Part shown: positions 6,384 through 64,000 of the stretch, one piece after another
Numbering within the stretch: the first letter of the stretch is position 1
Layout: every line of letters begins with the position of its first letter
NCBI RefSeq assembly: GCF_022846255.1
Contig: NZ_AP025682.1
Reading direction: 5' to 3' (one strand)
Source of the DNA: Escherichia coli
Lineage (GTDB): Bacteria > Pseudomonadota > Gammaproteobacteria > Enterobacterales > Enterobacteriaceae
DNA length: 64,000 bases
Program-made: the position numbers and the translations under genes
The notes under the pieces: model-generated
Database searches by the model: none
Seen by the model: the letters and a program-made list of their open reading frames with translations, nothing else
Told to the model about the DNA's origin: nothing

Positions 6384-6445
6384 GCCTGATGCGGCGTAAA
6401 CGCCTTATCCGCCTACGAAGTGTCACACTTTGTAGGCGTGGTAAG
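6384..6445. repeat. REP (repetitive extragenic palindrome) element(s) downstream of argH
   Basis: GCCTGATGCGGCGTAAACGCCTTATCCGCCTAC plus a second partial palindrome; typical E. coli REP consensus. Confidence 0.65.
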
Positions 6446-6477
6446 CTCCCCATTTTCAGGGGAGCAATATAAACAAA

Positions 6478-11005: not shown

Positions 11006-11020
11006 AACGTAGGCCAAACA

Positions 11021-31880: not shown

Positions 31881-32184
31881 GAAGGAAAAGCCGAAGGGCG
31901 TCAACCGAAAAATAACCAATGATGGTGAGGAAAAATCAGGGAAGATGAAAAAAACTCATCTTAATTAGAGGCGATAAAAGATTTCTCTATAGCGCAATCC
32001 ACCTCGCACGTTTTGACTCATATTCTGACAACACAGCGACACCTGGGCTAATTCGAAAAACAACGTCCTGCCACCGGATGGTGATGTTAAGGCATCTGAT
32101 TCGGCCTGCGCCCTCGCGTAGGCCGAATACAGGATCTGCGCAATCAACGGGTAACAAACAGTTGAGTCAATTCAGTGCGCACTT

Positions 32185-33744: not shown

Positions 33745-33797
33745 TCCCTTTCAGTGAGATAAAGGATTGCTACATTACGTTCTGAAAGACTTATTTA

Positions 33798-33813
33798 TGT
33801 GAGAGTAATCACA
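33798..33813. promoter_or_regulatory. CRP-type binding site (TGTGA-N6-TCACA) in divergent promoter between paralog A and the zinc-ribbon ORF
   Basis: Sequence TGTGAGAGTAATCACA read directly; perfect match to both CRP half-sites with 6-bp spacer. Confidence 0.5.
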
Positions 33814-33870
33814 TCCGCAGGGGATAGTTGCCGGACAAAATCAACGACCTTGTGAAATCGTTGGTGATAT

Positions 33871-34995
33871 ATGTCGACTCTGTTTACGATTAATGCCTGT
33901 AAAACGTTCGGTTGCCGAAATTTGGGATTGGCCTCATCGGAAGATTACAGTTGGCCAGACTATAAACTGGGTTATCCGGCACTGCACTGTCGGGCATGTG
34001 GAAGTTACCCGCCGTTGTTTGACGAACAGCAATTTCGTGACTGGTTGTCAGTTCACTTATCTACTTTTGCAACTGAGAAAGGTCATTTCTGCCCGGTATG
34101 TTATGGCACAGACATGATTTGTTATGGTCACAATCCACAGGGTTCGCAACGCATTCAATGCCGTAACTGCAAAAAAGTCTGGACGCCTAAAAAATATCAG
34201 AAAGAAATTACGCATCCCCAGGCCATTGAAACCGTTCAACTGTTCATACCCTTTCAAGGGGCCAGTGCAGTACAAAAACTGTATGTTTTAGTCAGTCTTG
34301 ACGCCACTCGTGGCAACATTCTTCATCTCTCCACGAATTATACGCAACATCAGACAGGAGACAGTCTGCGGTACAGTTACAAGGGCAACACAGAACCAAC
34401 TATGCACCATCGCGATATCGTGCAGAAGGTAGATATGCGTGAAGCGCAATTCTTGCGCCGGAGCCAGTTCGATGAAATTCAGTATGGCAGTGCTGTACTC
34501 AAGCGCAACGGTAAGGGAGCCATACTACGCCCGGTTATCACGGCACACGGGCATTTCAGAATACTGAAAATCCGCTATCCAGATGTCAAAACGCATATTA
34601 TTTCACACGAATGTTTTCTAAGAGGCGCAATTATTACAGCCTGGGCAGATCAGTTCCGCCAACAACAAGGTGAACTTTGGTTCGTAGAAGAAGAAATCAG
34701 TGACAGTAACGCTGATACGCCCTGGCATTTTAAGGGAACGACATACCATGGTTGGTGGCAAAATCAGTGGCAGCGCTGGGAGCAGGGGAATAACTGCAAG
34801 ATGGTCTGCCTACTCACGGGAGCCTGCTTAGAAAGGGGCGCAAATGTTTCTCTGGCAACCAGTCGTTGTTTTATCACATGGCTGACAGACCAACACGACT
34901 TTACCCAAAGCGCGTTATTATCCGCAGGTCGCGTAACACAAATGCTGACCTCACTGGCGTTAAAATACAATGAATCGCTCACTCCATCTTGTTAG
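33871..34995 (+). CDS. Hypothetical cytoplasmic protein with N-terminal tandem CxxC zinc ribbons (InsA-like), 374 aa; function unknown
   Basis: ATG start at 33871; four CxxC pairs in first ~100 aa (CKTFGC, CRACG, CPVCYG...QRIQCRNCKKVW); no signal peptide; long uninterrupted ORF in AT-rich island. Confidence 0.6.
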   Translation: MSTLFTINACKTFGCRNLGLASSEDYSWPDYKLGYPALHCRACGSYPPLFDEQQFRDWLSVHLSTFATEKGHFCPVCYGTDMICYGHNPQGSQRIQCRNCKKVWTPKKYQKEITHPQAIETVQLFIPFQGASAVQKLYVLVSLDATRGNILHLSTNYTQHQTGDSLRYSYKGNTEPTMHHRDIVQKVDMREAQFLRRSQFDEIQYGSAVLKRNGKGAILRPVITAHGHFRILKIRYPDVKTHIISHECFLRGAIITAWADQFRQQQGELWFVEEEISDSNADTPWHFKGTTYHGWWQNQWQRWEQGNNCKMVCLLTGACLERGANVSLATSRCFITWLTDQHDFTQSALLSAGRVTQMLTSLALKYNESLTPSC

Positions 34996-35224
34996 TCAAT
35001 ACACTCGACAAACGACCATAAATTAAGAGAGAGCACTACCTTTCATTTAATTAAATATATAAATGTATGACCGTGAAATATAATCATGGTCAATGTTTAA
35101 TTAATAACATTATTTGTTACTAAGATCACACAATACTTTTCTGAACTATGCTTACATAAAATAAGACACGATGTGTCTTTTATTTAAATAATTCAACAAA
35201 TGTAACACACCCTATCCAGGAGGG

Positions 35225-36778
35225 ATGATGAAAACTGTATTTACAACATTATCAGTCATATTCGGCGTGATATTTTCTCACAGTGTTCTAGCTCAGGACG
35301 TTACTATTTATTATACGAATGACATTCACGCACATGTCAATCCGGCAAAAATCATCGCTGTTGATAAGAACAGACTTATAGGTGGTATGGCTAATATTGC
35401 AGGCATCGTTAATGAAGCGAAGAAAAAAAGCAAAGATGTGTTTTTCTTTGATGCAGGCGACTATTTTACCGGGCCGTATATCAGCACCCTGACCAAAGGT
35501 GAAGCTATTATTGATATCATGAACACTATGCCCTTTGATGCGGTGTCTGTTGGTAATCACGAGTTCGATCACGGTGTGCCCAATATGGTGTCTCAGTTAT
35601 CAAAAGCAAAATTTCCCATTCTGCTGGGAAATATCTACTACACCGATACGAATAAACCAGTTTGGGATCATCCGTGGACCATTATCGAAAAAGATGGTTT
35701 AAAGATTGGTGTGATTGGATTGCATGGCGCATTCGCTTTCTATGATACAGTCGCGGCAAAAGCACGTGAAGGCGTAGAAGCCAGAGACGAAATTAAATAT
35801 TTAAATAAAGCACTTGCAGAATTAAAAGGTAAAGTCGACATTACCGTTTTGCTAATTCACGAAGGTGTCCCGGCGCGTCAATCAAGCTTTGGTAGTAAAG
35901 ATGTGGAGCGGCTACTACAGGCAGATATTGAGACAGCTAAAAAAGTGAATGGTGTTGATGTCTTAATTACCGGTCACGCACATGTCGGAACACCGCAACC
36001 AATAAAAGTTAATAACACATTAATTGTATCTACCGATGCATACGGCACCAACATCGGAAAACTTGTGCTTGATTACAATCCGAAAACGAAGAAAATTGAT
36101 AGTTATAATGGTGAGTTAATCACCATCTTTGCAGATCAATTTAAACCTGACACCATCGTTCAAAATACTATTGATAAATGGAGTGCAAAGCTTAACAAAA
36201 TAACACAGGAAGTTGTCGGCCATTCTCCCGTAGTTTTAACACGTGAGTATGGTAGTTCCTCTTCTACCGGCAACCTTATTCTTGATGCAATGATGGAAAA
36301 AACACCTGATGCCGTTGCCGGATTTCAAAATAGCGGTGGGATGCGAGCTGATTTTCCTAAAGGCGATATCACACTGGGAGATGTTATTAGCACATTCCCC
36401 TTTAATAATGACCTCATCGAGATGGATTTGACGGGCCGCGATCTCAAATCATTGATGACGCATGCAACCAATCTAACTAACGGTGTGTTACAAGTTTCTA
36501 AAAGTGTTGCGGTTGTCTATGACAGCAAAAAACCACTCAACCAACGGTTAATCTCTTTCACCATTAACGGCAAACCCGTGGAAGATAATCAAACATATCG
36601 TATTGCCACGCACTCCTTTTGTGCCAGTGGTGGTGACGGTTTTGAAGCATTTTTGAATGGAAAAAATGTGAAAACGATACCGGGAACAACCTCGGCGGAA
36701 TCTATCATCGATTATTTCAAAAATCACAAGCCTATCACCCCAGACTTAACTAAACGAGTCATGGACGTCGCCAAATAA
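35225..36778 (+). CDS. Secreted bifunctional metallophosphatase/5'-nucleotidase (UshA/CpdB family), paralog B, 517 aa
   Basis: Strong SD (AGGAGGG) then MMKTVFTTLSVIFGVIFSHSVLAQDVTIYYTNDIHAHV...; same motif set as paralog A (GDYFTG, GNHEFD, GHAHVG, NSGGMR, GGDGF). Confidence 0.85.
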   Translation: MMKTVFTTLSVIFGVIFSHSVLAQDVTIYYTNDIHAHVNPAKIIAVDKNRLIGGMANIAGIVNEAKKKSKDVFFFDAGDYFTGPYISTLTKGEAIIDIMNTMPFDAVSVGNHEFDHGVPNMVSQLSKAKFPILLGNIYYTDTNKPVWDHPWTIIEKDGLKIGVIGLHGAFAFYDTVAAKAREGVEARDEIKYLNKALAELKGKVDITVLLIHEGVPARQSSFGSKDVERLLQADIETAKKVNGVDVLITGHAHVGTPQPIKVNNTLIVSTDAYGTNIGKLVLDYNPKTKKIDSYNGELITIFADQFKPDTIVQNTIDKWSAKLNKITQEVVGHSPVVLTREYGSSSSTGNLILDAMMEKTPDAVAGFQNSGGMRADFPKGDITLGDVISTFPFNNDLIEMDLTGRDLKSLMTHATNLTNGVLQVSKSVAVVYDSKKPLNQRLISFTINGKPVEDNQTYRIATHSFCASGGDGFEAFLNGKNVKTIPGTTSAESIIDYFKNHKPITPDLTKRVMDVAK

Positions 36779-36818
36779 AATCTCATTTATCAGTCAATTT
36801 ATTTAACAAGGAATGTGA

Positions 36819-48396: not shown

Positions 48397-49356
48397 GTGG
48401 CACAACGAGATTATGTACGCCGCAGCCAACCGGCACCTTCGCGGCGAAAAAAGAGCACCTCACGGAAAAAGCAACGAAATCTGCCTGCGGTTTCTCCCGC
48501 TATGGTCGCTATTGCTGCCGCCGTTCTTGTGACCTTTATCGGTGGTCTGTACTTCATTACGCATCACAAGAAAGAAGAGTCCGAGACGCTGCAAAGCCAG
48601 AAAGTGACCGGAAACGGACTACCACCAAAACCAGAAGAACGCTGGCGCTACATCAAAGAGCTGGAAAGTCGCCAGCCGGGTGTGCGTGCGCCTACAGAAC
48701 CTTCTGCCGGTGGTGAAGTGAAAACGCCGGAGCAACTGACACCAGAACAACGCCAGCTTCTTGAGCAAATGCAGGCTGATATGCGCCAGCAGCCAACGCA
48801 GCTGGTTGAAGTTCCATGGAATGAACAGACGCCGGAACAGCGTCAGCAAACGCTACAGCGCCAGCGTCAGGCGCAGCAATTAGCGGAGCAGCAACGCCTG
48901 GCTCAGCAGTCGCGTACGACTGAACAAAGCTGGCAGCAGCAGACGCGTACGTCGCAAGCCGCGCCGGTACAGGCGCAACCGCGCCAGTCTAAACCGGCTT
49001 CTACTCAGCAGCCGTACCAGGATCTGCTGCAAACCCCTGCGCACACGACCGCGCAGTCGAAGCCGCAGCAAGCTGCGCCGGTTGCTCGTGCCGCTGACGC
49101 GCCAAAACCGACGGCGGAGAAAAAAGACGAACGCCACTGGATGGTGCAGTGCGGTTCGTTCAGAGGCGCGGAACAGGCAGAGACGGTACGTGCTCAGCTG
49201 GCGTTCGAAGGCTTTGACTCAAAAATTACCACCAACAATGGCTGGAATCGTGTGGTGATTGGCCCGGTGAAAGGCAAAGAGAACGCAGACAGCACCCTCA
49301 ATCGCTTGAAGATGGCGGGTCATACAAACTGCATTCGGCTCGCCGCCGGGGGTTGA
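48397..49356 (+). CDS. ftsN: Cell division protein FtsN (319 aa, GTG start)
   Basis: MAQRDYVRRSQPAPSRRKKSTSRKKQRNLPAVSPAMVAIAAAVLVTFIGG...; Q/P-rich linker and C-terminal SPOR domain. Confidence 0.94.
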   Translation: MAQRDYVRRSQPAPSRRKKSTSRKKQRNLPAVSPAMVAIAAAVLVTFIGGLYFITHHKKEESETLQSQKVTGNGLPPKPEERWRYIKELESRQPGVRAPTEPSAGGEVKTPEQLTPEQRQLLEQMQADMRQQPTQLVEVPWNEQTPEQRQQTLQRQRQAQQLAEQQRLAQQSRTTEQSWQQQTRTSQAAPVQAQPRQSKPASTQQPYQDLLQTPAHTTAQSKPQQAAPVARAADAPKPTAEKKDERHWMVQCGSFRGAEQAETVRAQLAFEGFDSKITTNNGWNRVVIGPVKGKENADSTLNRLKMAGHTNCIRLAAGG

Positions 49357-49380
49357 AACCCTCAAAATCCCCCCCATCTA
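49353..49380 (+). promoter_or_regulatory. Sigma-32 heat-shock promoter of hslVU
   Basis: TTGAAA (-35) ... CCCCCATCTA (-10) matching sigma32 consensus CTTGAAA/CCCCATNT, ~70 bp upstream of hslV. Confidence 0.75.
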
Positions 49381-49448
49381 TAATTGCATTATGCCCCGTA
49401 CTTTTGTACGGGGTTTGTACTCTGTATTCGTAACCAAGGGGTCAGCTC

Positions 49449-49979
49449 GTGACAACTATAGTAAGCGTACGCCGTAACGGCCATGTGGTCATCGCTGGTG
49501 ATGGTCAGGCCACGTTGGGCAATACCGTAATGAAAGGCAACGTGAAAAAGGTCCGCCGTCTGTACAACGACAAAGTCATCGCGGGCTTTGCGGGCGGTAC
49601 TGCGGATGCTTTTACGCTGTTCGAACTGTTTGAACGTAAACTGGAAATGCATCAGGGCCATCTGGTCAAAGCCGCCGTTGAGCTGGCGAAAGACTGGCGT
49701 ACCGATCGCATGCTGCGCAAACTTGAAGCACTGCTGGCAGTCGCGGATGAAACTGCATCGCTTATCATCACCGGTAACGGTGACGTGGTGCAGCCAGAAA
49801 ACGATCTTATTGCTATCGGCTCCGGCGGCCCTTACGCCCAGGCTGCGGCGCGCGCGCTGTTAGAAAACACTGAACTTAGCGCCCGTGAAATTGCTGAAAA
49901 GGCGTTGGATATTGCAGGCGACATTTGCATCTATACCAACCATTTCCACACCATCGAAGAATTAAGCTACAAAGCGTAA
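49449..49979 (+). CDS. hslV: ATP-dependent protease subunit HslV (176 aa)
   Basis: [38 protein letters not shown]... N-terminal Thr nucleophile. Confidence 0.97.
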
Positions 49980-49988
49980 GGATCTCCC

Positions 49989-51320
49989 ATGTCTGAAATG
50001 ACCCCACGCGAAATCGTCAGCGAACTGGATAAGCACATCATCGGCCAGGACAACGCCAAGCGTTCCGTGGCGATTGCTCTGCGTAACCGCTGGCGTCGCA
50101 TGCAGCTCAACGAAGAGCTGCGCCATGAAGTGACCCCGAAAAATATCCTGATGATCGGCCCGACCGGTGTCGGTAAAACTGAAATCGCCCGTCGTCTGGC
50201 TAAGCTGGCGAATGCGCCGTTCATCAAAGTTGAAGCGACCAAATTCACCGAAGTGGGCTATGTCGGTAAGGAAGTGGATTCTATTATTCGCGATCTGACC
50301 GATGCCGCCGTGAAAATGGTACGCGTCCAGGCTATCGAGAAAAACCGTTATCGCGCTGAAGAACTGGCAGAAGAACGTATTCTCGACGTGCTGATCCCAC
50401 CGGCTAAAAACAACTGGGGACAGACCGAACAGCAGCAGGAACCGTCCGCTGCTCGTCAGGCATTCCGCAAAAAACTGCGTGAAGGCCAGCTTGATGACAA
50501 AGAAATCGAGATCGATCTTGCCGCAGCACCGATGGGCGTTGAAATTATGGCTCCTCCGGGCATGGAAGAGATGACCAGCCAGCTGCAGTCCATGTTCCAG
50601 AACCTGGGCGGTCAGAAGCAAAAAGCGCGTAAGCTGAAAATCAAAGACGCCATGAAGCTGCTGATTGAAGAAGAAGCGGCGAAACTGGTGAACCCGGAAG
50701 AGCTGAAGCAAGATGCTATCGACGCTGTTGAGCAGCACGGGATCGTGTTTATCGACGAAATCGACAAAATCTGTAAGCGCGGCGAGTCTTCCGGTCCGGA
50801 TGTTTCTCGTGAAGGCGTTCAGCGTGACCTGCTGCCGCTGGTAGAAGGTTGCACTGTTTCCACCAAACACGGGATGGTCAAAACTGACCACATTCTGTTT
50901 ATCGCTTCTGGCGCGTTCCAGATTGCGAAACCGTCTGACCTGATCCCGGAACTGCAAGGTCGCCTGCCAATCCGCGTTGAGCTGCAGGCACTGACCACCA
51001 GCGACTTTGAGCGTATACTGACCGAGCCGAATGCCTCTATCACCGTGCAGTACAAAGCACTGATGGCAACTGAGGGCGTAAATATCGAGTTTACCGACTC
51101 CGGTATTAAGCGCATCGCGGAAGCGGCATGGCAGGTGAACGAATCTACCGAAAACATCGGTGCTCGTCGTTTACATACCGTTCTGGAGCGTTTAATGGAA
51201 GAGATTTCCTACGACGCCAGCGATTTAAGCGGTCAAACTATCACTATTGACGCAGATTATGTGAGCAAACATCTGGATGCGTTGGTGGCAGATGAAGATC
51301 TGAGCCGTTTTATCCTATAA
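49989..51320 (+). CDS. hslU: ATP-dependent protease ATPase subunit HslU (443 aa)
   Basis: [40 protein letters not shown]...; Walker A GPTGVGKT. Confidence 0.97.
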
Positions 51321-51386
51321 TCGCGTTCAATCATTTTCATCATTGTTTGATGGGGCTGAAAGGCCCCATTTTTATTGGCGCGTATT

Positions 51387-52313
51387 ATGACTGAACAACA
51401 AATTAGCCGAACTCAGGCGTGGCTGGAAAGTTTACGACCTAAAACCCTCCCCCTCGCCTTTGCTGCAATTATCGTCGGGACGGCGCTGGCATGGTGGCAA
51501 GGTCACTTCGATCCACTGGTCGCCCTGCTGGCATTGATTACCGCCGGGCTATTACAGATCCTTTCTAACCTCGCCAATGATTACGGCGATGCGGTAAAAG
51601 GCAGCGATAAACCTGACCGCATTGGGCCGCTACGCGGCATGCAAAAAGGGGTCATTACCCAGCAAGAGATGAAACGGGCGCTCATTATTACCGTTGTGCT
51701 CATCTGTCTTTCCGGGCTGGCACTGGTTGCAGTGGCGTGCCATACGCTGGCCGATTTTGTCGGTTTCCTGATTCTTGGCGGGTTGTCGATCATTGCCGCT
51801 ATCACCTACACCGTGGGCAATCGTCCTTATGGTTATATCGGTTTGGGTGATATTTCCGTACTGGTTTTCTTTGGCTGGTTGAGCGTCATGGGGAGCTGGT
51901 ATTTACAGGCTCATACATTGATTCCGGCACTGATCCTTCCGGCAACCGCATGCGGCCTGCTGGCAACGGCAGTACTGAACATTAATAACCTGCGTGATAT
52001 CAATAGCGACCGCGAAAACGGCAAAAACACGCTGGTGGTGCGCTTAGGTGCAGTAAACGCGCGTCGTTATCATGCCTGCCTGCTGATGGGCTCTCTGGTG
52101 TGTCTGGCGCTGTTTAATCTCTTTTCACTGCATAGCCTGTGGGGCTGGCTGTTCCTGCTGGCGGCACCATTACTGGTGAAGCAAGCCCGTTATGTGATGC
52201 GGGAAATGGACCCGGTGGCGATGCGACCGATGCTGGAACGCACTGTCAAGGGAGCGTTACTGACTAACCTGCTGTTTGTTTTAGGGATATTCCTAAGCCA
52301 GTGGGCAGCATAA
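51387..52313 (+). CDS. menA: 1,4-dihydroxy-2-naphthoate octaprenyltransferase (308 aa)
   Basis: ORF 51375..52313 trimmed to MTEQQISRTQAWLESLRPKTLPLAFAAIIVG...; UbiA-family prenyltransferase. Confidence 0.92.
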   Translation: MTEQQISRTQAWLESLRPKTLPLAFAAIIVGTALAWWQGHFDPLVALLALITAGLLQILSNLANDYGDAVKGSDKPDRIGPLRGMQKGVITQQEMKRALIITVVLICLSGLALVAVACHTLADFVGFLILGGLSIIAAITYTVGNRPYGYIGLGDISVLVFFGWLSVMGSWYLQAHTLIPALILPATACGLLATAVLNINNLRDINSDRENGKNTLVVRLGAVNARRYHACLLMGSLVCLALFNLFSLHSLWGWLFLLAAPLLVKQARYVMREMDPVAMRPMLERTVKGALLTNLLFVLGIFLSQWAA

Positions 52314-52405
52314 CTGACAAATATCAATTAACAATTGATGATTTTGCCAACAGCCTACATAGCGCGATATACTGAAAATTCTCGCAGCAACTGAATGTTA
52401 AGCCT

Positions 52406-52891
52406 ATGAAATACGATACTTCCGAGCTTTGTGACATCTATCAAGAAGATGTTAACGTCGTGGAACCGCTGTTCTCCAACTTTGGCGGACGGGCGTCGTT
52501 TGGCGGACAAATAATCACGGTAAAATGTTTCGAGGACAACGGGTTGCTGTACGATCTGCTCGAACAGAATGGCCGTGGTCGTGTTCTTGTCGTCGATGGC
52601 GGTGGTTCTGTTCGTCGCGCACTGGTCGATGCTGAACTGGCGCGTCTGGCAGTACAAAATGAATGGGAAGGCCTGGTCATTTACGGCGCGGTGCGTCAGG
52701 TAGATGACCTGGAAGAGCTGGATATCGGCATCCAGGCGATGGCAGCAATTCCAGTCGGTGCCGCTGGCGAAGGCATTGGCGAAAGCGATGTCCGCGTCAA
52801 TTTTGGCGGTGTCACCTTCTTCTCCGGCGACCATCTTTATGCCGACAATACCGGGATTATTCTTTCTGAAGATCCGTTGGATATTGAATGA
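52406..52891 (+). CDS. rraA: RNase E inhibitor RraA (161 aa)
   Basis: [67 protein letters not shown]... Confidence 0.95.
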
Positions 52892-52900
52892 TAAAAAAGG

Positions 52901-52912
52901 CACCGCAAGGTG
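52901..52912. repeat. IS4 target-site duplication, left copy
   Basis: CACCGCAAGGTG directly abutting IS4 left end; identical copy at 54339..54350. Confidence 0.8.
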
Positions 52913-54338
52913 TAATGCCAGTCAGTTAAGCAACTGACTGGCTCTTTTTCGGGGCTGTGGGGTATTTCCAGGGCCTCTCCTTTACCACTCTCGGGAAGGC
53001 CCTTTCCCTTCTTGTCGGTAATTTCACAAGTTGTCCCATACTTGCAAGATCGCGCATCAGCTCCGGTATACGTCCCGGTGAAGCGCCCTGCAATGTCATC
53101 AGCATTCTCATCACCATTCCACATGATTCTGAGAAACTCAGTTGATTCGGCCAGTAACCTTTCAGATGTTCCGCCATTTTAATCATCTGATATCTCACCA
53201 GATTATAAGCCAGTAAGACACCCCACAGCTCTTGCTCCACAAGCTCCGGTTTTTTACTTCTCAGCGTCAGCCTGCTCAGTTGCATCGTCTGTTTTATCTC
53301 CCTGTATCCCAGTTCGATTTCCCAGCGATGACTGTACAGATCCGCCATTTCTCCTCCGGGGAAGCGCATGGCGTCCGTCATCGACGTCAGCAGATGGCAG
53401 ACTTTTCCTTTGCGCGTCACGGTCAGCAGGCGGGCTGTCACTTCATTTCCCAGTCCCGGCCACTTTTTTCGTGCCTGCGGGCTGGTTTTCAGCTTCACCA
53501 GATGATCGCCTTTACCCAGTTTTCTGATCTCTTCATATTGCGCTCCCTTTCTGAGAGGTATCATCCAGTGGCGGTGTTCTCCCGCCAGGCTCCAGGCATT
53601 TAACAGTCCCAGTGAGTAATAACCTTTATCCATTAACGTCAGAGTGTTATCGCCGGTTTGTTCTATAAGTTGCTCAGCAAGCTCATTTTCGCTGTTCTTC
53701 ATCGTGCCGAAGGCTGCAGCCGTCAGCAGATGGCTGGTCAGTTCCATCTGGCAGACCATTTTGACCTGCGGGTAGAGCGCCGGGTTCCCGGCATGTGTCT
53801 GGCGGGGGAAGGCTGCATCGTTCTCTGGTGTATCCGGTGTGCGCCAGAACACACCATCGATGGCCAGCAGGGTCAGGCCGCACCAGTGCGGATGCGGCGT
53901 GGCGTTATGCCAGAGCTGCGCTGTTTTCGTGAACACGCGGCGGACAGCCTCACTTCCCAGGCGCTGGCGGGCCTGAATAACGGCACTGGGGGCAACGAAG
54001 GGGCGATTGCCCGGCAGCATGATGTCCAGGCGATTCACAATCTGGTGAAGAGGTTCTTTACGCTCAAGCGCCATGCCAACAATACACCAGACCATCATTT
54101 CGAGGGGAAGACGGCGCTTGCGTAGCGTTACAGTACCTGATTCGGCAAGGCAACGAGAGATGAGTTCGGGGTCGAGGTAATCCCCCAGAGAAGTCAGTGG
54201 GTTACGCAGAGAATCGTAACGGGATACCAGATCAAGAGCCTGTCCAATGTGCATAAAAAAATCCGGAAACAAGTGAGCGTTTCCGGATTCTTACACAGCC
54301 ACTGGATCGGTCAACTGATCCTTAACTGATCGGCATTA
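52913..54338 (-). mobile_element. Insertion sequence IS4 (1426 bp) with imperfect 18-bp terminal inverted repeats
   Basis: Ends TAATGCCAGTCAGTTAAG ... CTTAACTGATCGGCATTA (16/18 inverted match); length 1426 bp equals canonical IS4; single transposase ORF; 12-bp TSD. Confidence 0.9.
52926..54254 (-). CDS. insG: IS4 transposase (DDE family, ~442 aa)
   Basis: ORF 52926..54272 trimmed to [36 protein letters not shown]...; recognised IS4 transposase. Confidence 0.9.
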
Positions 54339-54350
54339 CACCGCAAGGTG
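54339..54350. repeat. IS4 target-site duplication, right copy
   Basis: CACCGCAAGGTG followed by CCTTTTTT. Confidence 0.8.
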
Positions 54351-54413
54351 CCTTTTTTCTGCGTTACCTGTTGGCCTACACAGTAAAGAAATTACGCGAA
54401 AGATGAAGTGTAA

Positions 54414-54707
<294 letters not shown>

Positions 54708-54849
54708 TTACCGGTGACGCCTTAATAAATACGAGCGCACTTTAGTTAGCTCCGATTGTATGAAGCCGCGCCATCGCTGTCCAGCGGCACGCCTTGCAGA
54801 TTACGGTTTGCCACACTTTTCATCCTTCTCCTGGTGACATAATCCACAC

Positions 54850-55010
54850 CAATCGAAAATGTTAATAAATTTGTTGCGCGAATGATCTAACAAACATGCA
54901 TCATGTACAATCAGATGGAATAAATGGCGCGATAACGCTCATTTTATGACGAAGCACACACATTTTAAGTTCGATATTTCTCGTTTTTGCTCGTTAACGA
55001 TAAGTTTACA
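54850..55010. promoter_or_regulatory. glpFKX promoter region with CRP-like and GlpR-operator-like sequences
   Basis: Repeated TCGTT/AACGA half-sites (TTTTGCTCGTTAACGATAAGTTTAC, AAGTTCGATATTTCTCGTTTTTGC) resembling GlpR operators; upstream AT-rich TGT..ACA motifs. Confidence 0.5.
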
Positions 55011-55083
55011 GCATGCCTACAAGCATCGTGGAGGTCCGTGACTTTCACGCATACAACAAACATTAACTCTTCAGGATCCGATT

Positions 55084-57460
<2,377 letters not shown>

Positions 57461-57466
57461 TGTAAA

Positions 57467-57498
57467 TGCCGGATGAAGCGTTTATGCCGCATCCGGTA
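57467..57498. repeat. REP element between glpK and glpX
   Basis: GCCGGATGAAGCGTTTATGCCGCATCCGGTAG. Confidence 0.7.
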
Positions 57499-57594
57499 GT
57501 CCTGAATCGTGCGGGGGCAACCCCGCACACATCAATAATCCCGCCCTTCCCCTGTGCTACACTTCGCGCCATTCCTTACTGCTTAGAGTTTGCT

Positions 57595-58605
57595 ATGAGA
57601 CGAGAACTTGCCATCGAATTTTCCCGCGTCACCGAATCAGCGGCGCTGGCTGGCTACAAATGGTTAGGACGCGGCGATAAAAACACCGCGGACGGCGCGG
57701 CGGTAAACGCCATGCGTATTATGCTCAACCAGGTCAACATTGACGGCACCATCGTCATTGGTGAAGGTGAAATCGACGAAGCACCGATGCTCTACATTGG
57801 TGAAAAAGTCGGTACTGGTCGCGGCGACGCGGTAGATATTGCTGTTGATCCGATTGAAGGCACGCGCATGACGGCGATGGGCCAGGCTAACGCGCTGGCG
57901 GTGCTGGCAGTAGGCGATAAAGGCTGTTTCCTCAACGCGCCAGATATGTATATGGAGAAGCTGATCGTCGGACCGGGAGCCAAAGGCACCATTGATCTGA
58001 ACCTGCCGCTGGCGGATAACCTGCGCAATGTTGCGGCGGCGCTCGGCAAACCGTTGAGCGAACTGACGGTAACGATTCTGGCAAAACCGCGCCACGATGC
58101 CGTTATCGCAGAAATGCAGCAACTCGGCGTGCGCGTATTTACTATTCCGGACGGCGACGTTGCAGCCTCAATTCTCACCTGTATGCCAGACAGCGAAGTT
58201 GACGTGCTGTACGGTATTGGTGGCGCGCCGGAAGGCGTGGTTTCTGCGGCGGTGATCCGCGCATTAGATGGTGACATGAACGGTCGTCTGCTGGCGCGTC
58301 ATGACGTCAAAGGCGACAACGAAGAGAATCGTCGCATTGGCGAGCAGGAGCTGGCACGCTGCAAAGCGATGGGCATCGAAGCCGGTAAAGTATTGCGTTT
58401 GGGCGATATGGCGCGCAGCGACAACGTCATCTTTTCTGCCACCGGCATCACCAAAGGTGATCTGCTGGAAGGTATTAGCCGCAAAGGCAATATCGCCACC
58501 ACCGAAACGCTGCTGATCCGTGGTAAATCACGCACCATTCGTCGCATTCAGTCCATCCACTATCTGGATCGTAAAGACCCGGAAATGCAGGTGCACATCC
58601 TCTGA
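57595..58605 (+). CDS. glpX: Fructose-1,6-bisphosphatase class II GlpX (336 aa)
   Basis: ORF 57466..58605 trimmed to MRRELAIEFSRVTESAALAGYKWLGRGDKNTADGAAVNAMR... Confidence 0.95.
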   Translation: MRRELAIEFSRVTESAALAGYKWLGRGDKNTADGAAVNAMRIMLNQVNIDGTIVIGEGEIDEAPMLYIGEKVGTGRGDAVDIAVDPIEGTRMTAMGQANALAVLAVGDKGCFLNAPDMYMEKLIVGPGAKGTIDLNLPLADNLRNVAAALGKPLSELTVTILAKPRHDAVIAEMQQLGVRVFTIPDGDVAASILTCMPDSEVDVLYGIGGAPEGVVSAAVIRALDGDMNGRLLARHDVKGDNEENRRIGEQELARCKAMGIEAGKVLRLGDMARSDNVIFSATGITKGDLLEGISRKGNIATTETLLIRGKSRTIRRIQSIHYLDRKDPEMQVHIL

Positions 58606-58626
58606 TTGATTTGATCGATTGAGCCT

Positions 58627-58655
58627 TCCAGTCCTTCGGGACTGGAATTTTTTTG
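58627..58655 (+). terminator. Intrinsic terminator after glpX
   Basis: TTCCAGTCCTTCGGGACTGGAA hairpin followed by T7. Confidence 0.8.
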
Positions 58656-58701
58656 TTCGGAGAACGAAGATAAGGCAAGTCAATCAAAACAGGAGAAAAA
58701 C

Positions 58702-59448
58702 ATGGCTGATTGGGTAACAGGCAAAGTCACTAAAGTGCAGAACTGGACCGACGCCCTGTTTAGTCTCACCGTTCACGCTCCCGTGCTTCCGTTTACCGCC
58801 GGGCAATTCACCAAACTTGGCCTTGAAATTGAAGGCGAACGCGTTCAGCGCGCCTACTCCTATGTTAACTCGCCCGATAATCCGGATCTGGAGTTTTACC
58901 TGGTCACCGTCCCCGATGGCAAATTAAGTCCACGACTGGCGGCACTGAAACCGGGCGATGAAGTGCAGGTGGTTAGCGAAGCCGCTGGCTTCTTTGTGCT
59001 GGATGAAGTACCAGATTGCGAAACGCTATGGATGCTGGCAACCGGTACAGCGATTGGCCCTTATTTATCGATTCTGCAATTGGGCAAAGATTTAGAACGC
59101 TTCAAAAACATGGTGCTGGTTCACGCCGCACGATATGCCGCCGACTTAAGCTATCTACCTCTGATGCAGGAACTGGAAAAACGCTACGAGGGGAAACTGC
59201 GCATTCAGACGGTGGTCAGTCGGGAAACGGCTGTGGGTTCGCTCACTGGGCGATTACCGGCGTTAATTGAAAGTGGTGAACTGGAAAGCGCGGTTGGCCT
59301 GCCGATGAATAAAGAAACCAGCCATGTGATGCTGTGCGGCAATCCACAGATGGTGCGCGATACACAACAGTTGCTGAAGGAGACCCGGCAGATGACGAAA
59401 CATTTACGTCGCCGACCGGGCCATATGACAGCGGAGCATTACTGGTAA
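58702..59448 (+). CDS. fpr: Ferredoxin/flavodoxin-NADP+ reductase (248 aa)
   Basis: MADWVTGKVTKVQNWTDALFSLTVHAPVLPFTAGQFTKLGL... Confidence 0.95.
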   Translation: MADWVTGKVTKVQNWTDALFSLTVHAPVLPFTAGQFTKLGLEIEGERVQRAYSYVNSPDNPDLEFYLVTVPDGKLSPRLAALKPGDEVQVVSEAAGFFVLDEVPDCETLWMLATGTAIGPYLSILQLGKDLERFKNMVLVHAARYAADLSYLPLMQELEKRYEGKLRIQTVVSRETAVGSLTGRLPALIESGELESAVGLPMNKETSHVMLCGNPQMVRDTQQLLKETRQMTKHLRRRPGHMTAEHYW

Positions 59449-59452
59449 GCGG

Positions 59453-59881
59453 TTACTTGTCGATAAACGGCACGATCAAGAGATCCGCACTCAACTTATT
59501 GATCATCCCGCGATATGCCGGCATCAAACGGTTGATAAATGAGTGGTGATGACCACAGACAAGGAGGTCGCACTGCTCTTTTTGCATAATTTCCAGCAGT
59601 GTTTCCGGCATTTCTCCGCGTTCAATACGCAGTTTTGTCTTCGGCCATTGAATATTTTTCGTCAGTTTATACAGCTTGTTATCCGACTTATTCTTCAACA
59701 ATTGAAGAATATCTTCTGTTGCAGGGAAGTAGATACCCGGATACAACTCGCTTAAGCCATCATCAATATGAATTAACGTCAGGTGAGCGTCATTATGTCT
59801 GGCGAGCTCCAGGGCTTTATTCACCAGTAAGGCATCTTCTTCATTCCCGGAAATTGCCACGCCAATGTGTTTATAAGCCAT
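59453..59881 (-). CDS. uspD: Universal stress protein D (142 aa)
   Basis: [42 protein letters not shown]... Confidence 0.92.
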
Positions 59882-59907
59882 GTTTAACTCCTTCTAAAGC
59901 AACTCCA

Positions 59908-60207
59908 TCAAGCTAACGAACGCAGTGATAACTCAAAAATAATCATCTCGGCCTGGCATGAGAAGGTGAAGGCCGCATCAAGCTCAACTTGCCCTTCCAG
60001 ATCCTTAATCTTATAGGCCACGCTGGCCCCTTCATCTGCAGAGGATGCAGCGGCGGCAAGCTCTTTCAGTTTGGTCATAAAGGACTCTGCTTCTTCGCGG
60101 GTGGCAAAAAAGCGCGAAAACTTACTGGTACAGTTGTCGTTATCAATCACCGTACCGATATCAATCGCACATCCTTTAGTACTGCATTTATCTACGACAT
60201 CTTTCAT
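59908..60207 (-). CDS. yiiS: UPF0381 protein YiiS (99 aa)
   Basis: [54 protein letters not shown]... Confidence 0.88.
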
Positions 60208-60418
60208 AGGGCACCTCTGTATATTCGCCTCTCTGTCGATTACGACTTAAGAATAATGCGCCGTTAAAGGAAGAACAAACAAGTAATGATCTTATGGATT
60301 ACCATTTTTTTTGATATTGCTTAAGGTGAAGAGTTCAGAAGGATTTTCCGGGCATTGTCACTTGCATCGTGGAAATAACAATCCCGGAAAAAAATAGCGA
60401 TAAGAGATATATTAAAGG

Positions 60419-60859
60419 TTAATTACTTGATTTATTGTCGGCTTTATACTTCACATCCTGGGTATCTTTACCATATTTATTTTCGCCTTGTGTGCCAACA
60501 AACGCACCAAGATCGATAAGCATCATCACCAGAATCAATGTCGGGACAAAACGCCCCACCGCCCATTGCCAGACACCCGGTAAAATTGCCCAGTTACCCG
60601 CCAGCAGCATCCACGCCACAATCATCAGAAATGCCCATGCGCCGGAACGCCCGCGATCATGCAAGCGCTTAACGGTTACTGCCGCTGTTGGCCAAAGCAA
60701 GCACACAAGGCAAAACGCCGCGGTCTGAATATCGAGTAAATTTTTACCCGCCAGTGAGAAAAGCACCAGCATGCCTGCGAACCACAGGCCTATCCAAATC
60801 CAGAAATCACGGCGTCCAATACGCCCTTTAAATGAGAATAACCATTGCTGTATGGTCAT
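60419..60859 (-). CDS. yiiR: DUF805 inner-membrane protein YiiR (146 aa)
   Basis: MTIQQWLFSFKGRIGRRDFWIWIGLWFAGMLVLFSLAG... Confidence 0.88.
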   Translation of the reverse strand: MTIQQWLFSFKGRIGRRDFWIWIGLWFAGMLVLFSLAGKNLLDIQTAAFCLVCLLWPTAAVTVKRLHDRGRSGAWAFLMIVAWMLLAGNWAILPGVWQWAVGRFVPTLILVMMLIDLGAFVGTQGENKYGKDTQDVKYKADNKSSN

Positions 60860-60959
60860 GTAAGTTCCTTGATGGTTGTCTTTTCCAGGATTCTACCCTT
60901 TTGACAAGGGCGACAGATATCGTTTTAATCGGAGCCAGTCATAACAAAAGGTACTGTCA

Positions 60960-61559
60960 ATGAAGCCAGGGTGTACGCTGTTTTTTCTCTTATGTTCTGC
61001 ATTAACCGTTACAACAACGGCGCATGCACAAACACCAGATACGGCAACGACCGCGCCTTATCTGCTGGCTGGAGCCCCTACTTTCGATCTCTCCATCAGC
61101 CAGTTTCGAGAAGACTTTAACAGCCAGAATCCCAGCCTGCCACTGAACGAATTTCGTGCCATCGACAGCAGTCCCGACAAAGCCAATCTCACTCGTGCAG
61201 CAAGTAAAATTAACGAGAACTTGTATGCTTCTACTGCACTGGAGCGCGGTACCTTAAAAATCAAAAGCATTCAAATAACCTGGCTACCCATCCAGGGGCC
61301 AGAGCAAAAAGCCGCGAAAGCGAAAGCTCAGGCATACATGGCAGCGGTGATCCGCACACTCACCCCATTAATGACCAAAACTCAAAGCCAGAAAAAACTG
61401 CAGTCGCTACTAACGGCGGGGAAAAACAAACGTTATTACACCGAGACAGAAGGTGCACTGCGTTATGTTGTCGCGGACAACGGCGAAAAGGGGCTGACCT
61501 TCGCTGTTGAACCGATTAAGCTGGCGCTATCTGAATCGCTTGAAGGTTTGAATAAATGA
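60960..61559 (+). CDS. yiiQ: DUF1454 secreted protein YiiQ (199 aa)
   Basis: MKPGCTLFFLLCSALTVTTTAHAQTPDTATTAPYLLAG... signal peptide. Confidence 0.88.
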   Translation: MKPGCTLFFLLCSALTVTTTAHAQTPDTATTAPYLLAGAPTFDLSISQFREDFNSQNPSLPLNEFRAIDSSPDKANLTRAASKINENLYASTALERGTLKIKSIQITWLPIQGPEQKAAKAKAQAYMAAVIRTLTPLMTKTQSQKKLQSLLTAGKNKRYYTETEGALRYVVADNGEKGLTFAVEPIKLALSESLEGLNK

Positions 61560-61666
61560 CAAAAAGCAAAGCCTTTGTGCCGATGAATCTCTATACTGTT
61601 TCACAGACCTGCTGCCCTGCGGGGCGGCCATCTTCCTTTATTCGCTTATAAGCGTGGAGAATTAAA

Positions 61667-62434
61667 ATGCGACATCCTTTAGTGATGGGTAACTGGAAAC
61701 TGAACGGCAGCCGCCACATGGTTCACGAGCTGGTTTCTAACCTGCGTAAAGAGCTGGCAGGTGTTGCTGGCTGTGCGGTTGCAATCGCACCACCGGAAAT
61801 GTACATCGATATGGCGAAGCGTGAAGCTGAAGGCAGCCACATCATGCTGGGTGCGCAAAACGTGGACCTGAACCTGTCCGGCGCATTCACCGGTGAAACC
61901 TCTGCTGCTATGCTGAAAGACATCGGCGCACAGTACATCATCATCGGCCACTCTGAACGTCGTACTTACCACAAAGAATCTGACGAACTGATCGCGAAAA
62001 AATTCGCGGTGCTGAAAGAGCAGGGTCTGACTCCGGTTCTGTGCATCGGTGAAACCGAAGCGGAAAACGAAGCGGGCAAAACTGAAGAAGTTTGTGCACG
62101 TCAGATCGACGCGGTACTGAAAACTCAGGGTGCTGCGGCATTCGAAGGTGCGGTTATCGCTTACGAACCTGTATGGGCAATCGGTACTGGCAAATCTGCA
62201 ACTCCGGCTCAGGCACAGGCTGTTCACAAATTCATCCGTGACCACATTGCTAAAGTTGACGCTAACATCGCTGAACAAGTGATCATTCAGTACGGCGGCT
62301 CTGTAAACGCGTCTAACGCTGCAGAACTGTTTGCTCAGCCAGACATCGACGGCGCGCTGGTTGGCGGTGCTTCTCTGAAAGCTGACGCTTTCGCCGTGAT
62401 CGTTAAAGCTGCAGAAGCGGCTAAACAGGCTTAA
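61667..62434 (+). CDS. tpiA: Triosephosphate isomerase (255 aa)
   Basis: [67 protein letters not shown]... Confidence 0.97.
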
Positions 62435-62443
62435 GTCTGACAG

Positions 62444-62466
62444 GTGCCGGATTTCATATCCGGCAC
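62444..62466. terminator. Bidirectional terminator hairpin between tpiA and cdh
   Basis: GTGCCGGATTTCATATCCGGCAC perfect inverted repeat between convergent genes. Confidence 0.7.
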
Positions 62467-62488
62467 TTACTTTCCTAAACTCCTCGCC

Positions 62489-63244
62489 TTAACGCAAAAT
62501 CTCACACTGATGATCCTGGATTTCCTCGGCTGAAGCACGGTTCAGCGTCAGTAGATTTCGTTGTGTCGCCAGCAATACAAATGAGTTATCACTCTGCCGT
62601 ACCATCGCCAGCCCGTAGCTTCCCATATGTTCCCGCGCCTCAGGCACTTCTTCCGCCAGCATCATAAATGGGCTGCGTTGTACCAGTTCGCTTTCCGTTA
62701 CCCGACGCACCAGGTACTCATGCCCACGCAAACCACCTGGCAGTGGCAACCAGCGGCTACTGATGTTCGCCAGATTGTTATCCAGCTGTTCGCGCACATC
62801 AGGACGAATACAAGAAATATGAATATGAAAATGGTTTTGCGTACGCCCGGTGCGGGAGTTGATCGCCAGAGATACCGCGCGATCGGGAACAGGCTGGCCG
62901 TATTTTTGGCTCATAAAATCACGCGCCTGCCAGGCTAACCAGAAAAAATTAGGCGTTGACGGATCGGTCAACAATGGGCTTTCAGTACCGTTAATACGGT
63001 ACGTTGGCATCAACAGATATTGCAGTGGGCCATGACGATCTTTTAAAACCACGTATCCGGCGTTGGGTTTGACTTCCGCACATGGCGACGGGTTTTGGTT
63101 TTCCTGCTGGTTGGGCAAACATTGCTCAAGAACAATCTTACGTAACGTGTCTGACTCTTCACCGGTTAATTTCCAGTAACCAATACCGGCAGCCACAACG
63201 GCGATAACTATCATCACCAAAAAAAGAAGACCCGCTTTTTTCAT
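62489..63244 (-). CDS. cdh: CDP-diacylglycerol pyrophosphatase (251 aa)
   Basis: ORF 62489..63436 trimmed to [38 protein letters not shown]... Confidence 0.93.
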
Positions 63245-63350
63245 CTTTTTTTCCCTGTACCTCAAAGAGATGCAAGGGTAACGCAAAATCGTGACAAATA
63301 AAAAACCCAGTCGCGAGAAACCACCGGGCTTGATAATTATCCTGGGGAAA

Positions 63351-64000
63351 TCAGCGTTTGCTGATCTGATCGAACGTACCGCCGTTAGCAAAATGCTCTT
63401 TTTGCGCTTTCGTCCAGCCGCCGAACTCTTCATCAATGGTGAATAACTTCAATTTTGGAAACGCATTTTCGTACTTTTTCGCTACCTCAGCGTCGCGCGG
63501 ACGGTAGTAGTTTTTCGCTGCAATTTCCTGACCTTCTGGCGAGTAGAGATATTTCAGGTAGGCTTCCGCCACCTCTTTGGTGTCTTTTTTCTCGACCACT
63601 TTATCGACCACCGACACGGTTGGCTCTGCGAGGATAGACTCACTCGGCGTGACGATTTCGAATTTATCTTTCCCCAGTTCATTCGCTGCCAGCAGAGCTT
63701 CATTTTCCCAGGCAATCAGTACATCGCCAATTCCGCGCTCGACAAAAGTGTTAGTGGATCCGCGCGCGCCAGAATCCAGAACTTCGACGTTTTTATACAG
63801 TGCCCGAACAAAATCCTGTGCTTTTGCCTGATCGTTGTTGTTGTGATGCAGCGCGTAGCCCCAGGCTGCCAGGTAATTCCAGCGCGCGCCACCAGAGCTT
63901 TTCGGATTAGGCGTGATCACCGAAACACCCGGTTTAATCAGATCGTTCCAGTCATGGATCTGCTTCGGATTACCCTTACGTACCAGGAAAACAATGGTGG
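63351..64000 (-). CDS. sbp: Sulfate-binding periplasmic protein Sbp; 3' part only, 5' end beyond window end
   Basis: ORF 63351..63920 C-terminus ...[21 protein letters not shown] recognised as Sbp; full protein (~329 aa) cannot fit before the window end, so the frame is expected to continue. Confidence 0.85.

Follow-up and report, generated by a model that had tools for sequence, protein, structure and literature searches.

Why does an insertion sequence come to lie exactly in the middle of a hairpin shared by two convergent genes, and what becomes of the transcripts of those genes once it is there? Both questions are raised by the interval between rraA and zapB in a 64-kb stretch of Escherichia coli DNA (hereafter the window, meaning the whole stretch analysed), in which a copy of IS4 separates the two arms of the hairpin.

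The IS4 copy and its empty site

The locus is laid out as follows, with the source of each assignment given after its description.

52406-52891, + strand: rraA coding sequence (RNase E regulator, 161 aa); ORF list, RefSeq annotation of matching genomes and K-12
52893-52898, strand not applicable: A6 tract, left arm of the IS4 target; sequence, the position of the A-run agreeing with the IS4 left-flank profile
52899-52900: GG between the A6 tract and the left duplication copy; sequence
52901-52912: left copy of the 12-bp target-site duplication CACCGCAAGGTG; exact direct repeat D3
52913-54338, transposase on the - strand: IS4; comparison with K-12 IS4, RefSeq 'IS4-like element IS4 family transposase'
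52913-52930: IS4 terminal inverted repeat, rraA side (TAATGCCAGTCAGTTAAG); part of inverted repeat I1
52926-54254, - strand: IS4 transposase (InsG), 442 aa from the ATG at 54254; ORF list, translation comparison, NCBIfam
54321-54338: IS4 terminal inverted repeat, zapB side (CTTAACTGATCGGCATTA); repeat search and end comparison
54339-54350: right copy of the 12-bp target-site duplication CACCGCAAGGTG; repeat search
54351-54352: CC between the right duplication copy and the T6 tract; sequence
54353-54358: T6 tract, right arm of the IS4 target and original U-tract in the rraA direction; sequence, mirroring the right-flank profile
54414-54659, - strand: zapB coding sequence (81 aa), convergent with rraA; ORF list, RefSeq and K-12 annotation

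The element is an intact IS4 of 1426 bp, with both ends and its reading frame preserved, and differs at 5 nt from the annotated IS4 mobile element of K-12 (NC_000913.3). Its terminal repeats are imperfect, 18 bp long and start with TAATGCC, the two ends agreeing at 16 of 18 positions. The transposase gene is uninterrupted and is the sole ORF of the element, its product matching the NCBIfam model NF033592 (IS4 family transposase) with 304.5 bits against a cutoff of 115 and differing from K-12 InsG by two amino acids (A304G, L326R). The exact 12-bp duplication CACCGCAAGGTG flanking the element was found both by inspection of the sequence and by repeat search. The 64-kb window contains this 12-mer at these two places and nowhere else, compared with 0.02 occurrences expected from shuffles, and none of 100 shuffles gave two or more, which rules out a chance origin. 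The size of the element and the exactness of its duplication, both claimed in a first-pass annotation of this DNA, were thus verified by sequence, repeat search and shuffles. The resident IS4 of K-12 (insG, NC_000913.3 4502090-4503515) shares the length of 1426 bp, the terminal repeats, the 442-aa transposase and a 12-bp duplication, but lies between yjgZ and nanX at an AAA-N20-TTT site without a hairpin, whereas the window copy lies in the rraA/zapB terminator hairpin. The element is an ordinary copy of E. coli IS4 (IS4 family, IS4 subgroup) at a known kind of target.

The target is set closely between the two genes, a single base separating the rraA stop codon from the A-tract, which starts 2 nt past the stop, and 55 nt separating the zapB stop codon from the T-tract. 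On the strand that zapB shares with the transposase gene, the zapB stop (54414) lies 160 nt upstream of the transposase ATG (54254), in agreement with the estimate of the first-pass annotation. An Rfam search of the locus returned no RNA family.

Excising IS4 and one copy of the duplication restores AAAAAAGGCACCGCAAGGTGCCTTTTTT, a GC-rich stem-loop located between the stops of the convergent genes, with a U-tract directly 3' of the stem in both directions; in the zapB direction this U-tract is the complement of the A6 tract. The restored hairpin folds with -18.6 kcal/mol (z = -5.1) when read in the rraA sense and with -17.3 kcal/mol (z = -4.6) when read in that of zapB. Folding was used here because a simple terminator scan, by a rule that allows A/U pairs to be taken up into the stem, misses or half-calls both the empty-site hairpin and the hairpin at the right end of IS4. 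The disrupted host site is thus a predicted bidirectional intrinsic (Rho-independent) terminator common to rraA and zapB. The description of a GC hairpin with A6 and T6 arms between convergent genes, and with IS4 at its centre, is supported by the sequence and by folding on both strands. A literature search of limited reach returned no mapped bidirectional terminator linked to either gene.

That the empty site exists in nature was seen by comparing a 700-nt IS4-free construct with 5,426 complete E. coli genomes, 4,717 of which match it in one uninterrupted piece, in agreement with the expectation that IS4-free genomes carry the reconstructed hairpin. An exact match to the 47 nt of the hairpin site, A6 allele included, is present in 1,106 genomes, and the site was also read directly in K-12 and C41(DE3), where gataAGAAAGGCACCgcaaGGTGCCtttttt contains the identical hairpin with AAGAAA as a variant of the A-tract. 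On the side that forms the U-tract in the zapB direction, the window lineage thus carries A6, and K-12 and B strains carry AAGAAA. In about 700 genomes, two ORFs of unknown function stand in place of the terminator; these gave no match in PADLOC or NCBIfam.

Recurrent insertion and the target of IS4

The same hairpin is occupied by IS4 in 25 other genomes, in 10 of them in the orientation of the window copy and in 15 in the opposite one. Carriers of this insertion show duplications of either 12 or 11 bp and three alleles of the A-tract (AAAAAA, AGAAAA and AAGAAA), and over 20 kb their sequences are 1-2% divergent from the window. Since both orientations and both duplication lengths occur, the hairpin was struck at least three times independently, and descent of all carriers from a single event is ruled out. 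The A6 allele is found in at least 19 of the 25 carriers, compared with about 23% of empty sites, a difference between lineages that are not independent; the AGAAAA and AAGAAA carriers rule out that a perfect A6 is required for insertion.

A preference beyond this locus was examined in 69 distinct left flanks of IS4, obtained by a metagenome scan, and 31 right flanks, 16 of which come from Kosakonia oryziphila. An A-run is present in 84% of the left flanks and at 9% of background positions, a hairpin of at least 4 bp anchored at the junction in 54% and 3.8%, and both features together in 45% and 0.39%, respectively. The left-flank profile shows A at position -18 in 88% and G at -1 in 86% of cases, and is mirrored by the right flanks with C at +1 and T at +18 (87% each) and a T-run in 24 of 31. 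Comparison with individual insertion sites gave the same picture, the sites at raiA/bamD, ldcC/accA and fur/chiQ each having a GC hairpin between an A-run and a T-run, and duplications, 11-13 bp long, with the loop at their centre; duplications at ten other reconstructed sites also measure 11-13 bp. For the lon and pflB promoters, where papers report insertion of IS4, no junction sequences are given. The target of IS4 therefore reads as a symmetrically cut dyad of A-tract, GC-rich palindrome and T-tract, and the suggestion that the rraA/zapB hairpin is a preferred target is borne out by the 25 further carriers in both orientations and by the flank survey. The palindrome is preferred without being required, since the K-12 resident site conforms to AAA-N20-TTT with no hairpin and about 45% of left flanks have no clean anchored stem of at least 4 bp.

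The target rule AAA-N20-TTT was reportedly described by Mayaux and colleagues in 1984 (in Gene) and by Klaer and colleagues in 1981, and IS4 is said to have been found in the attenuator terminator of pheS,T. The restored site AAAAAAGGCACCGCAAGGTGCCTTTTTT contains this consensus, with the duplication centred in it. The profiles of the 69 left and 31 right flanks reproduce the rule and probably add to it the conserved G and C at the cut positions, a strong excess of true palindromes and the observation that the sites are two-way terminators. A related preference has reportedly been described for IS231A (Hallet and colleagues, 1994), which is said to favour a bent palindromic target with a GC core and A/T-rich arms. 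The likeness to IS4 lies in the IS4 family transposase and in a palindromic GC core with A/T-rich arms; unlike IS4, IS231A is a different element of a Bacillus host and is reportedly directed to transposon ends, not terminators. The work of De Palmenaer et al. is in line with the explanation preferred here, and conserved target arms are noted for the IS4 subgroup (PMC2266710). Insertion sequences that target extragenic REP palindromes are reviewed in PMC1525189; they likewise settle behind genes, in intergenic DNA that can form hairpins, and so keep damage small, but they recognise REP/BIME repeats instead of A-tract/T-tract terminators and mostly belong to other transposase families.

It might be argued that no targeting is needed, and that IS4 inserts approximately at random, with the copies in terminators persisting because they do no harm there. 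The survey covers fixed natural copies only, so that targeting and survival of harmless insertions are not fully separable in it, and intergenic 3' regions do tolerate insertions. Selection, however, cannot explain a base-pair register in which cuts are symmetric about the loop and the bases at the cut and at the outer arms are held at 86-88%, nor the striking of one identical hairpin in both orientations with a stagger that is the same or shifted by 1 bp. The joint target features are, moreover, enriched more than 100-fold over all positions, far above the intergenic share of the genome, and a recent expansion of IS4 in Kosakonia shows the same pattern. We therefore regard survivorship as a very improbable explanation of the pattern.

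How the dyad is recognised is a separate matter. IS4 might read an extruded hairpin or cruciform, or a state associated with the terminator such as stalled RNA polymerase or single-stranded DNA, in place of the sequence or shape of the duplex given by the spacing of A- and T-tracts. In favour of this, hairpin complementarity in the duplicated segment is found in 37 of the 69 left flanks, compared with 5.5 +/- 2.2 expected from position-specific base preferences (column composition alone), and genomic positions chosen solely for an A-run, a T-run, a GC-rich core and G at -1 reach about 10%. On the other hand, A/T tracts occur without a hairpin at the K-12 site and at several more, and in the left flanks the hairpin (54%) is a less regular feature than the A-run (84%). 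Dyad-symmetric duplex targets are, furthermore, usual for dimeric DDE transpososomes, and IS231A, from the same family as IS4, reportedly prefers a bent palindromic target. Guidance by DNA structure is thus a rather unlikely, although arguable, account of the preference.

Transcription across the interrupted site

The effect on the two host genes depends on what the insertion leaves behind and on what the element brings with it. The duplicated 12 bp consist of the GCAA loop and, from each stem arm, the inner 4 bp, so that a residual CACC/GGTG mini-hairpin of 4 bp is left at either flank, and not one half of the hairpin, as had been stated before. This mini-hairpin folds with -6.5 to -7.4 kcal/mol (the left copy with -7.4). 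On both sides, the insertion has parted the complete 6-bp stem from the U-tract next to it. Incoming transcripts would thus pass the residual hairpin followed by UAAUGCC instead of U's, while the remnant facing outward at each flank would comprise the 4-bp hairpin, a 2-nt spacer and U6.

From this arrangement it had been proposed that termination of both genes is probably weakened and that read-through from zapB could raise transposase expression. The separation of stem and U-tract, the low stability of what is left and the position of zapB and the transposase gene on one strand, 160 nt apart, are all in keeping with such a loss of the two-way terminator. The ends of IS4, however, contain structures that bear on it directly.

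52917-52949, + strand: IS4 terminator-like element facing inward from the rraA side, with an 11-bp stem GCCAGTCAGTT/AACTGACTGGC, the loop AAGC, then TCTTTTT; terminator scan, inverted repeat I5, folding
54255-54292, - strand: IS4 hairpin and U-run facing inward from the zapB side, with the core stem AATCCGGAAAC/GTTTCCGGATT and a T7 ending at the transposase ATG; inverted repeat I4, folding
54287-54314, - strand: promoter-like site for the transposase, TTGACC, 16-nt spacer, TGT-AAGAAT; consensus scan, 9/12 with an extended -10 TG

Transcripts arriving from rraA or zapB would now meet these inward-facing elements. On the rraA side, the hairpin (52917-52942, then UCUUUUU) lies about 30 nt inside IS4, is called with 11 pairs by the terminator scan and folds with -18.7 kcal/mol (z = -5.6). 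On the zapB side, the hairpin (54292-54257; 11-15 bp, then U7) folds with -18.8 kcal/mol (z = -5.5); the simple scan passes over it, since pairing in the stem can continue into the U-run and then leaves a short tail. With -18.7 and -18.8 kcal/mol compared with -17.3 and -18.6 kcal/mol for the host terminator, the end hairpins are as stable as the structure that was lost. Since IS4 carries strong inward hairpin and U-tract structures at both ends, termination of rraA and zapB has probably been moved to the end hairpins and not lost. The 3' end of rraA would shift by about 40 nt and that of zapB by about 100 nt, the two genes would stay insulated from each other, and the insertion would be neutral for both.

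The zapB-side hairpin has a further predicted consequence for the transposase. An internal promoter and start site may be placed at the 9/12 consensus match, the -10 element of which overlaps the 5' arm of the hairpin, so that the native transcript would start inside it. In folding predictions, the hairpin forms in zapB read-through RNA and is absent from RNA begun at this putative start. The read-through RNA folds with -46 kcal/mol and encloses the AUG, whereas the RNA from the start suggested by the promoter match is unstructured (z = +1.4), with the AUG open. The hairpin and U7 are thus predicted to end transcription, to occlude the transposase start codon, or both, in read-through RNA. Because such RNA would fold over the start codon or terminate just before it, zapB read-through is unlikely to increase expression of the transposase. 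IS10 and IS50 are protected from outside transcription by fold-back inhibition, and the architecture of IS4 resembles theirs in that the read-through RNA is predicted to fold over the start codon and the RNA from the element's own promoter is not; unlike the protection of these elements, the case for IS4 is built on folding and on the match to a promoter consensus, the literature searched having yielded no experiment on it. A 2025-26 preprint (bioRxiv 10.1101/2025.07.22.666184) reports that insertion sequences have terminator-like sequences upstream of them and within them, between their ends and the transposase genes, and IS4 likewise has a terminator-like structure before its transposase gene. 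In the form given, the earlier proposals of weakened termination and of transposase activation by zapB are thus not supported in silico, and we consider it improbable that rraA and zapB now terminate poorly or that zapB drives the transposase.

The explanation that we hold to be highly probable is that IS4 transposed into the centre of the shared rraA/zapB terminator and that the end hairpins of the element probably took over termination. The site would have been chosen because it matches the dyad-symmetric target of IS4, which corresponds to the older AAA-N20-TTT rule and has a GC-rich palindrome of about 16-20 bp set between an A-tract and a T-tract. A staggered 12-bp cut would have been placed symmetrically around the hairpin loop. 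In enterobacterial genomes, two-way Rho-independent terminators are the main source of such targets. Within this explanation, termination at the IS4 hairpins is a prediction from folding.

Implications for IS4 and its hosts

The presence of IS4 at rraA/zapB is real but unremarkable, both the element and the kind of target being already known. The locus itself is of small importance, since IS4 has roughly 5,400 copies in the 5,426 genomes and the annotation of 25 public E. coli genomes already shows one at this site. More generally, IS4 has a strong and quantifiable preference for terminators composed of A-tract, hairpin and T-tract, together with ends that bear inward-facing terminator-like hairpins, which would explain why copies of IS4 are usually harmless. 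A bolder and tentative reading, to which we give somewhat less than an even chance, is that IS4 is a dedicated hunter of two-way terminators, which reads the dyad, possibly in an extruded or transcription-associated form, cuts symmetrically about the loop and swaps in its own inward-facing terminator pair, leaving the split remnants to face outward. If this were true, host genes and IS4 would remain transcriptionally insulated, and terminator hunting would amount to a safe-harbour strategy formally undescribed for DDE insertion sequences. The pattern predicts where new copies of IS4 land, with hotspots that include rraA/zapB, raiA/bamD, ldcC/accA and fur/chiQ, and IS4 offers an uncomplicated case, supplied by nature, in which to ask if it is the shape of DNA or its structure that a DDE transposase reads.

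The insertion, its empty site and the surrounding window

IS4 lies between the convergent genes rraA and zapB, in the following arrangement.

Features of the rraA/zapB interval, with the source of each assignment in brackets
52406-52891, plus strand: rraA (sequence reading of 52200-54900, ORF list)
52893-52898: A6 tract, one base after rraA, then GG (sequence reading)
52901-52912: first duplication copy, CACCGCAAGGTG (sequence reading, repeat finder)
52913-54338: IS4, 1426 bp (between the duplication copies)
54339-54350: second duplication copy, CACCGCAAGGTG, followed by CC
54353-54358: T6 tract after the CC (sequence reading)
54414-54659, minus strand: zapB (sequence reading, ORF list)

The 12-bp direct repeat is exact; the 64-kb window contains these two copies and no others (0.02 expected), and the repeat finder also recovered the element's terminal inverted repeats. 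The element differs from the annotated K-12 IS4 at 5 of 1426 nt, while its 442-residue transposase (minus strand, ATG at 54254) differs from that of K-12 at two residues and reaches 304.5 bits against the NCBIfam IS4 model (cutoff 115). The K-12 match, the exact repeat and the NCBIfam score therefore confirm the first-pass annotation in its description of the element, its duplication and its junctions, and sequence reading and the ORF list agree with its distance of 160 nt between the zapB stop and the transposase start. An Rfam search returned nothing at the IS4 locus.

Of 5,426 complete E. coli genomes, 4,717 give an uninterrupted match to a 700-nt construct from which IS4 and one repeat copy had been removed. 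The 47-nt site with A6 occurs exactly in 1,106 genomes, and the majority of the others differ by one or two bases. The empty site of K-12 and C41(DE3) reads AAGAAA-GGCACC-GCAA-GGTGCC-TTTTTT, and the hairpin originally reconstructed on paper is thus carried by IS4-free genomes. Folding of the restored hairpin as RNA gives -18.6 kcal/mol for rraA transcripts and -17.3 kcal/mol for zapB transcripts, values equalled by no shuffle. About 700 of the 5,426 genomes instead hold, in place of the simple hairpin, an insert of about 1.5 kb between rraA and zapB that has different terminators and a pair of hypothetical ORFs, of 224 and 208 aa, neither with a PADLOC or NCBIfam match, as in E. coli GF60 (locus L004, 2830-4350), which has its own A-run/hairpin/T-run after rraA.

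Elsewhere in the window, two segments are missing in K-12, one of 7.6 kb in the metF/metL interval (31954-39593) and one of 3.1 kb in the oxyS/argH interval (3377-6477); conversely, about 300 bp of the K-12 ppc/argE interval (K-12 4153385-4153686) are missing at 11015-11020. The three Rfam matches are as expected for the region. Positions 44000-63999 share at most 99.0% identity with any complete RefSeq E. coli genome (K-12 about 97%), and the window's lineage is, judged on sequence identity, unrepresented among the 5,426 genomes.

Further features of the window
3260-3369: OxyS sRNA (Rfam gathering threshold)
3416-4699, minus strand: putative MFS-type transporter ORF (translation read only)
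4766-6040, minus strand: enolase-superfamily dehydratase-like ORF (translation read only)
32185-33744, minus strand; 35225-36778 and 36819-38438, plus strand: three paralogous UshA-like 5'-nucleotidase ORFs (translations read)
33871-34995, plus strand: Cys-rich ORF, 374 aa (translation read)
38515-39375, plus strand: Tsx-like ORF (translation read)
44730-44782: L31 ribosomal protein leader (Rfam gathering threshold)
49394-49451: ClpQY (hslVU) promoter element (Rfam gathering threshold)

Repeated insertion and target preference

IS4 lies in this hairpin in 25 genomes, oriented as in the window in 10 and the other way round in 15. Junctions read in six carriers show the same 12-bp duplication with IS4 in both orientations, an 11-bp duplication (ACCGCAAGGTG) at one opposite-orientation copy, and three A-tract alleles (AAAAAA, AGAAAA and AAGAAA); over 20 kb, the divergence of carriers from the window is 1-2%. 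At least three independent insertions into the rraA/zapB hairpin have therefore occurred, and probably more than three. Three further copies, found through flank similarity in the raiA/bamD, ldcC/accA and fur/chiQ intervals, each interrupt an A-run/GC-hairpin/T-run, and the loop stands at the centre of their 11-13-bp duplications.

The left end of IS4, sought by exact match in metagenome contigs, gave 120 loci with 69 distinct left flanks, in which A prevails from -22 to -16 (88% at -18), -14 to -9 is C-rich, and G stands at -4 in 75% and at -1 in 86%.

Left-flank features, distinct IS4 flanks (n=69) versus background positions
A-run: 84% versus 9%
Watson-Crick hairpin of at least 4 bp anchored at the junction: 54% versus 3.8%
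A-run and anchored hairpin jointly: 45% versus 0.39%

Hairpin sites numbered 37 as against 5.5 +/- 2.2 after column shuffling, and only about 10% of genomic positions having an A-run, a T-run, a GC-rich core and G at -1 possess an anchored hairpin; flank complementarity is therefore not a by-product of base preferences, and this palindrome excess speaks for dyad symmetry playing a part over and above a half-site consensus. The right flanks (31 distinct) mirror the left profile, with C at +1 in 87%, C at +4 in 77%, T at +18 in 87% and a T-run in 24 of 31. Together with the repeated hits at the locus, the flank survey upholds the suggestion that the hairpin is a preferred IS4 target. Hairpin-plus-T-run terminators make up eight or nine of the ten distinct fully reconstructed sites, the clearest exception being the resident K-12 site, an AAA-N20-TTT without a hairpin. 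IS4 may read duplex sequence or shape, with A and T tracts phased about a GC core, or else an extruded or transcription-linked structure; the K-12 site, and an A-run more constant than the hairpin in IS4 flanks, favour the former, beside the palindrome excess that speaks for dyad symmetry.

A single draft genome, Kosakonia oryziphila REICA_142 (L132-L147), supplied 16 of the 18 loci in the right-end scan of species-representative genomes; the exact right end lies on at least 16 of its contigs (T-run in 12 of 16 flanks, C first in 15 of 16), an IS4 expansion outside Escherichia. In seven of 18 copies with both ends (L025, L044, L055, L063, L073, L078 and L118), the two flanks do not match and a duplication is absent, yet either flank on its own resembles half of a terminator-type target. 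This points to chimeric assemblies or to inversions or deletions through recombination between IS4 copies.

Termination and transposase expression at the interrupted site

The first-pass annotation held that each flank keeps only half of the hairpin. The duplicated 12 bp, however, take in the loop together with the four stem base pairs closest to it, and each flank therefore retains a CACC/GGTG mini-hairpin. After this remnant, transcripts incoming from rraA or zapB read UAAUGCC instead of U's, so that the host terminator is lost to them. On both sides hairpins at the ends of IS4 would replace it. The left-end hairpin (plus strand, 11-bp stem at 52917-52942, 4 nt inside the end, then UCUUUUU) was called by a terminator scan and folds at -18.7 kcal/mol; the right-end hairpin (minus strand, 54292-54257, -18.8 kcal/mol) is followed by a U-run ending at the transposase AUG. 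Outgoing IS4 transcripts would meet the remnant as a 4-bp hairpin, CC and U6, a weak outward terminator. On these predictions termination has most likely been relocated, by about 40 nt downstream for rraA and about 100 nt for zapB, and zapB would not activate the transposase. Of the original interpretation, the target preference stands on the flank survey; given the predicted end hairpins, neither a weakening of termination nor activation of the transposase is likely.

AACTGAYYGG, seen by eye, occurs twice at each end of IS4 (52917-52942, 54313-54334). The left-end pair is inverted and makes the hairpin; the right-end pair is in tandem. The transposase may bind these repeats, and if so the left-end "terminator" could be their by-product.

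In a consensus scan, the site most like a promoter for the transposase (TTGACC, 16 nt, TGT-AAGAAT at 54314-54287) shares sequence with the 5' arm of the right-end hairpin. A transcript starting at about 54280, as predicted, lacks this arm and would be unstructured around the AUG (z = +1.4), whereas RNA entering from zapB is predicted to enclose the AUG in a fold of -46 kcal/mol. IS10 and IS50 are protected from outside transcription, and the predicted read-through RNA of IS4 would resemble them in this respect. At the left junction, a promoter-like hybrid (52888-52916, minus strand; 9/12 consensus match only), with a -35 ATTACA from the IS4 tip and duplication and a -10 TATCAT around the stop codon of rraA, would drive transcription into that gene on the antisense strand.

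Relation to what is known of IS4

The element is IS4 itself, and its target preference, with the rule AAA-N20-TTT, has long been known; Mayaux et al. in 1984 reportedly described IS4 inserted in the pheS,T attenuator terminator. A literature search found no paper calling IS4 sites two-way terminators or analysing the palindrome excess. In the rraA/zapB insertion both the element and the type of target are already known, and the two-way-terminator identity and palindrome excess are a modest extension rather than a new kind of system, although the target statistics and the predicted self-insulating architecture of the IS4 ends may deserve a short note.
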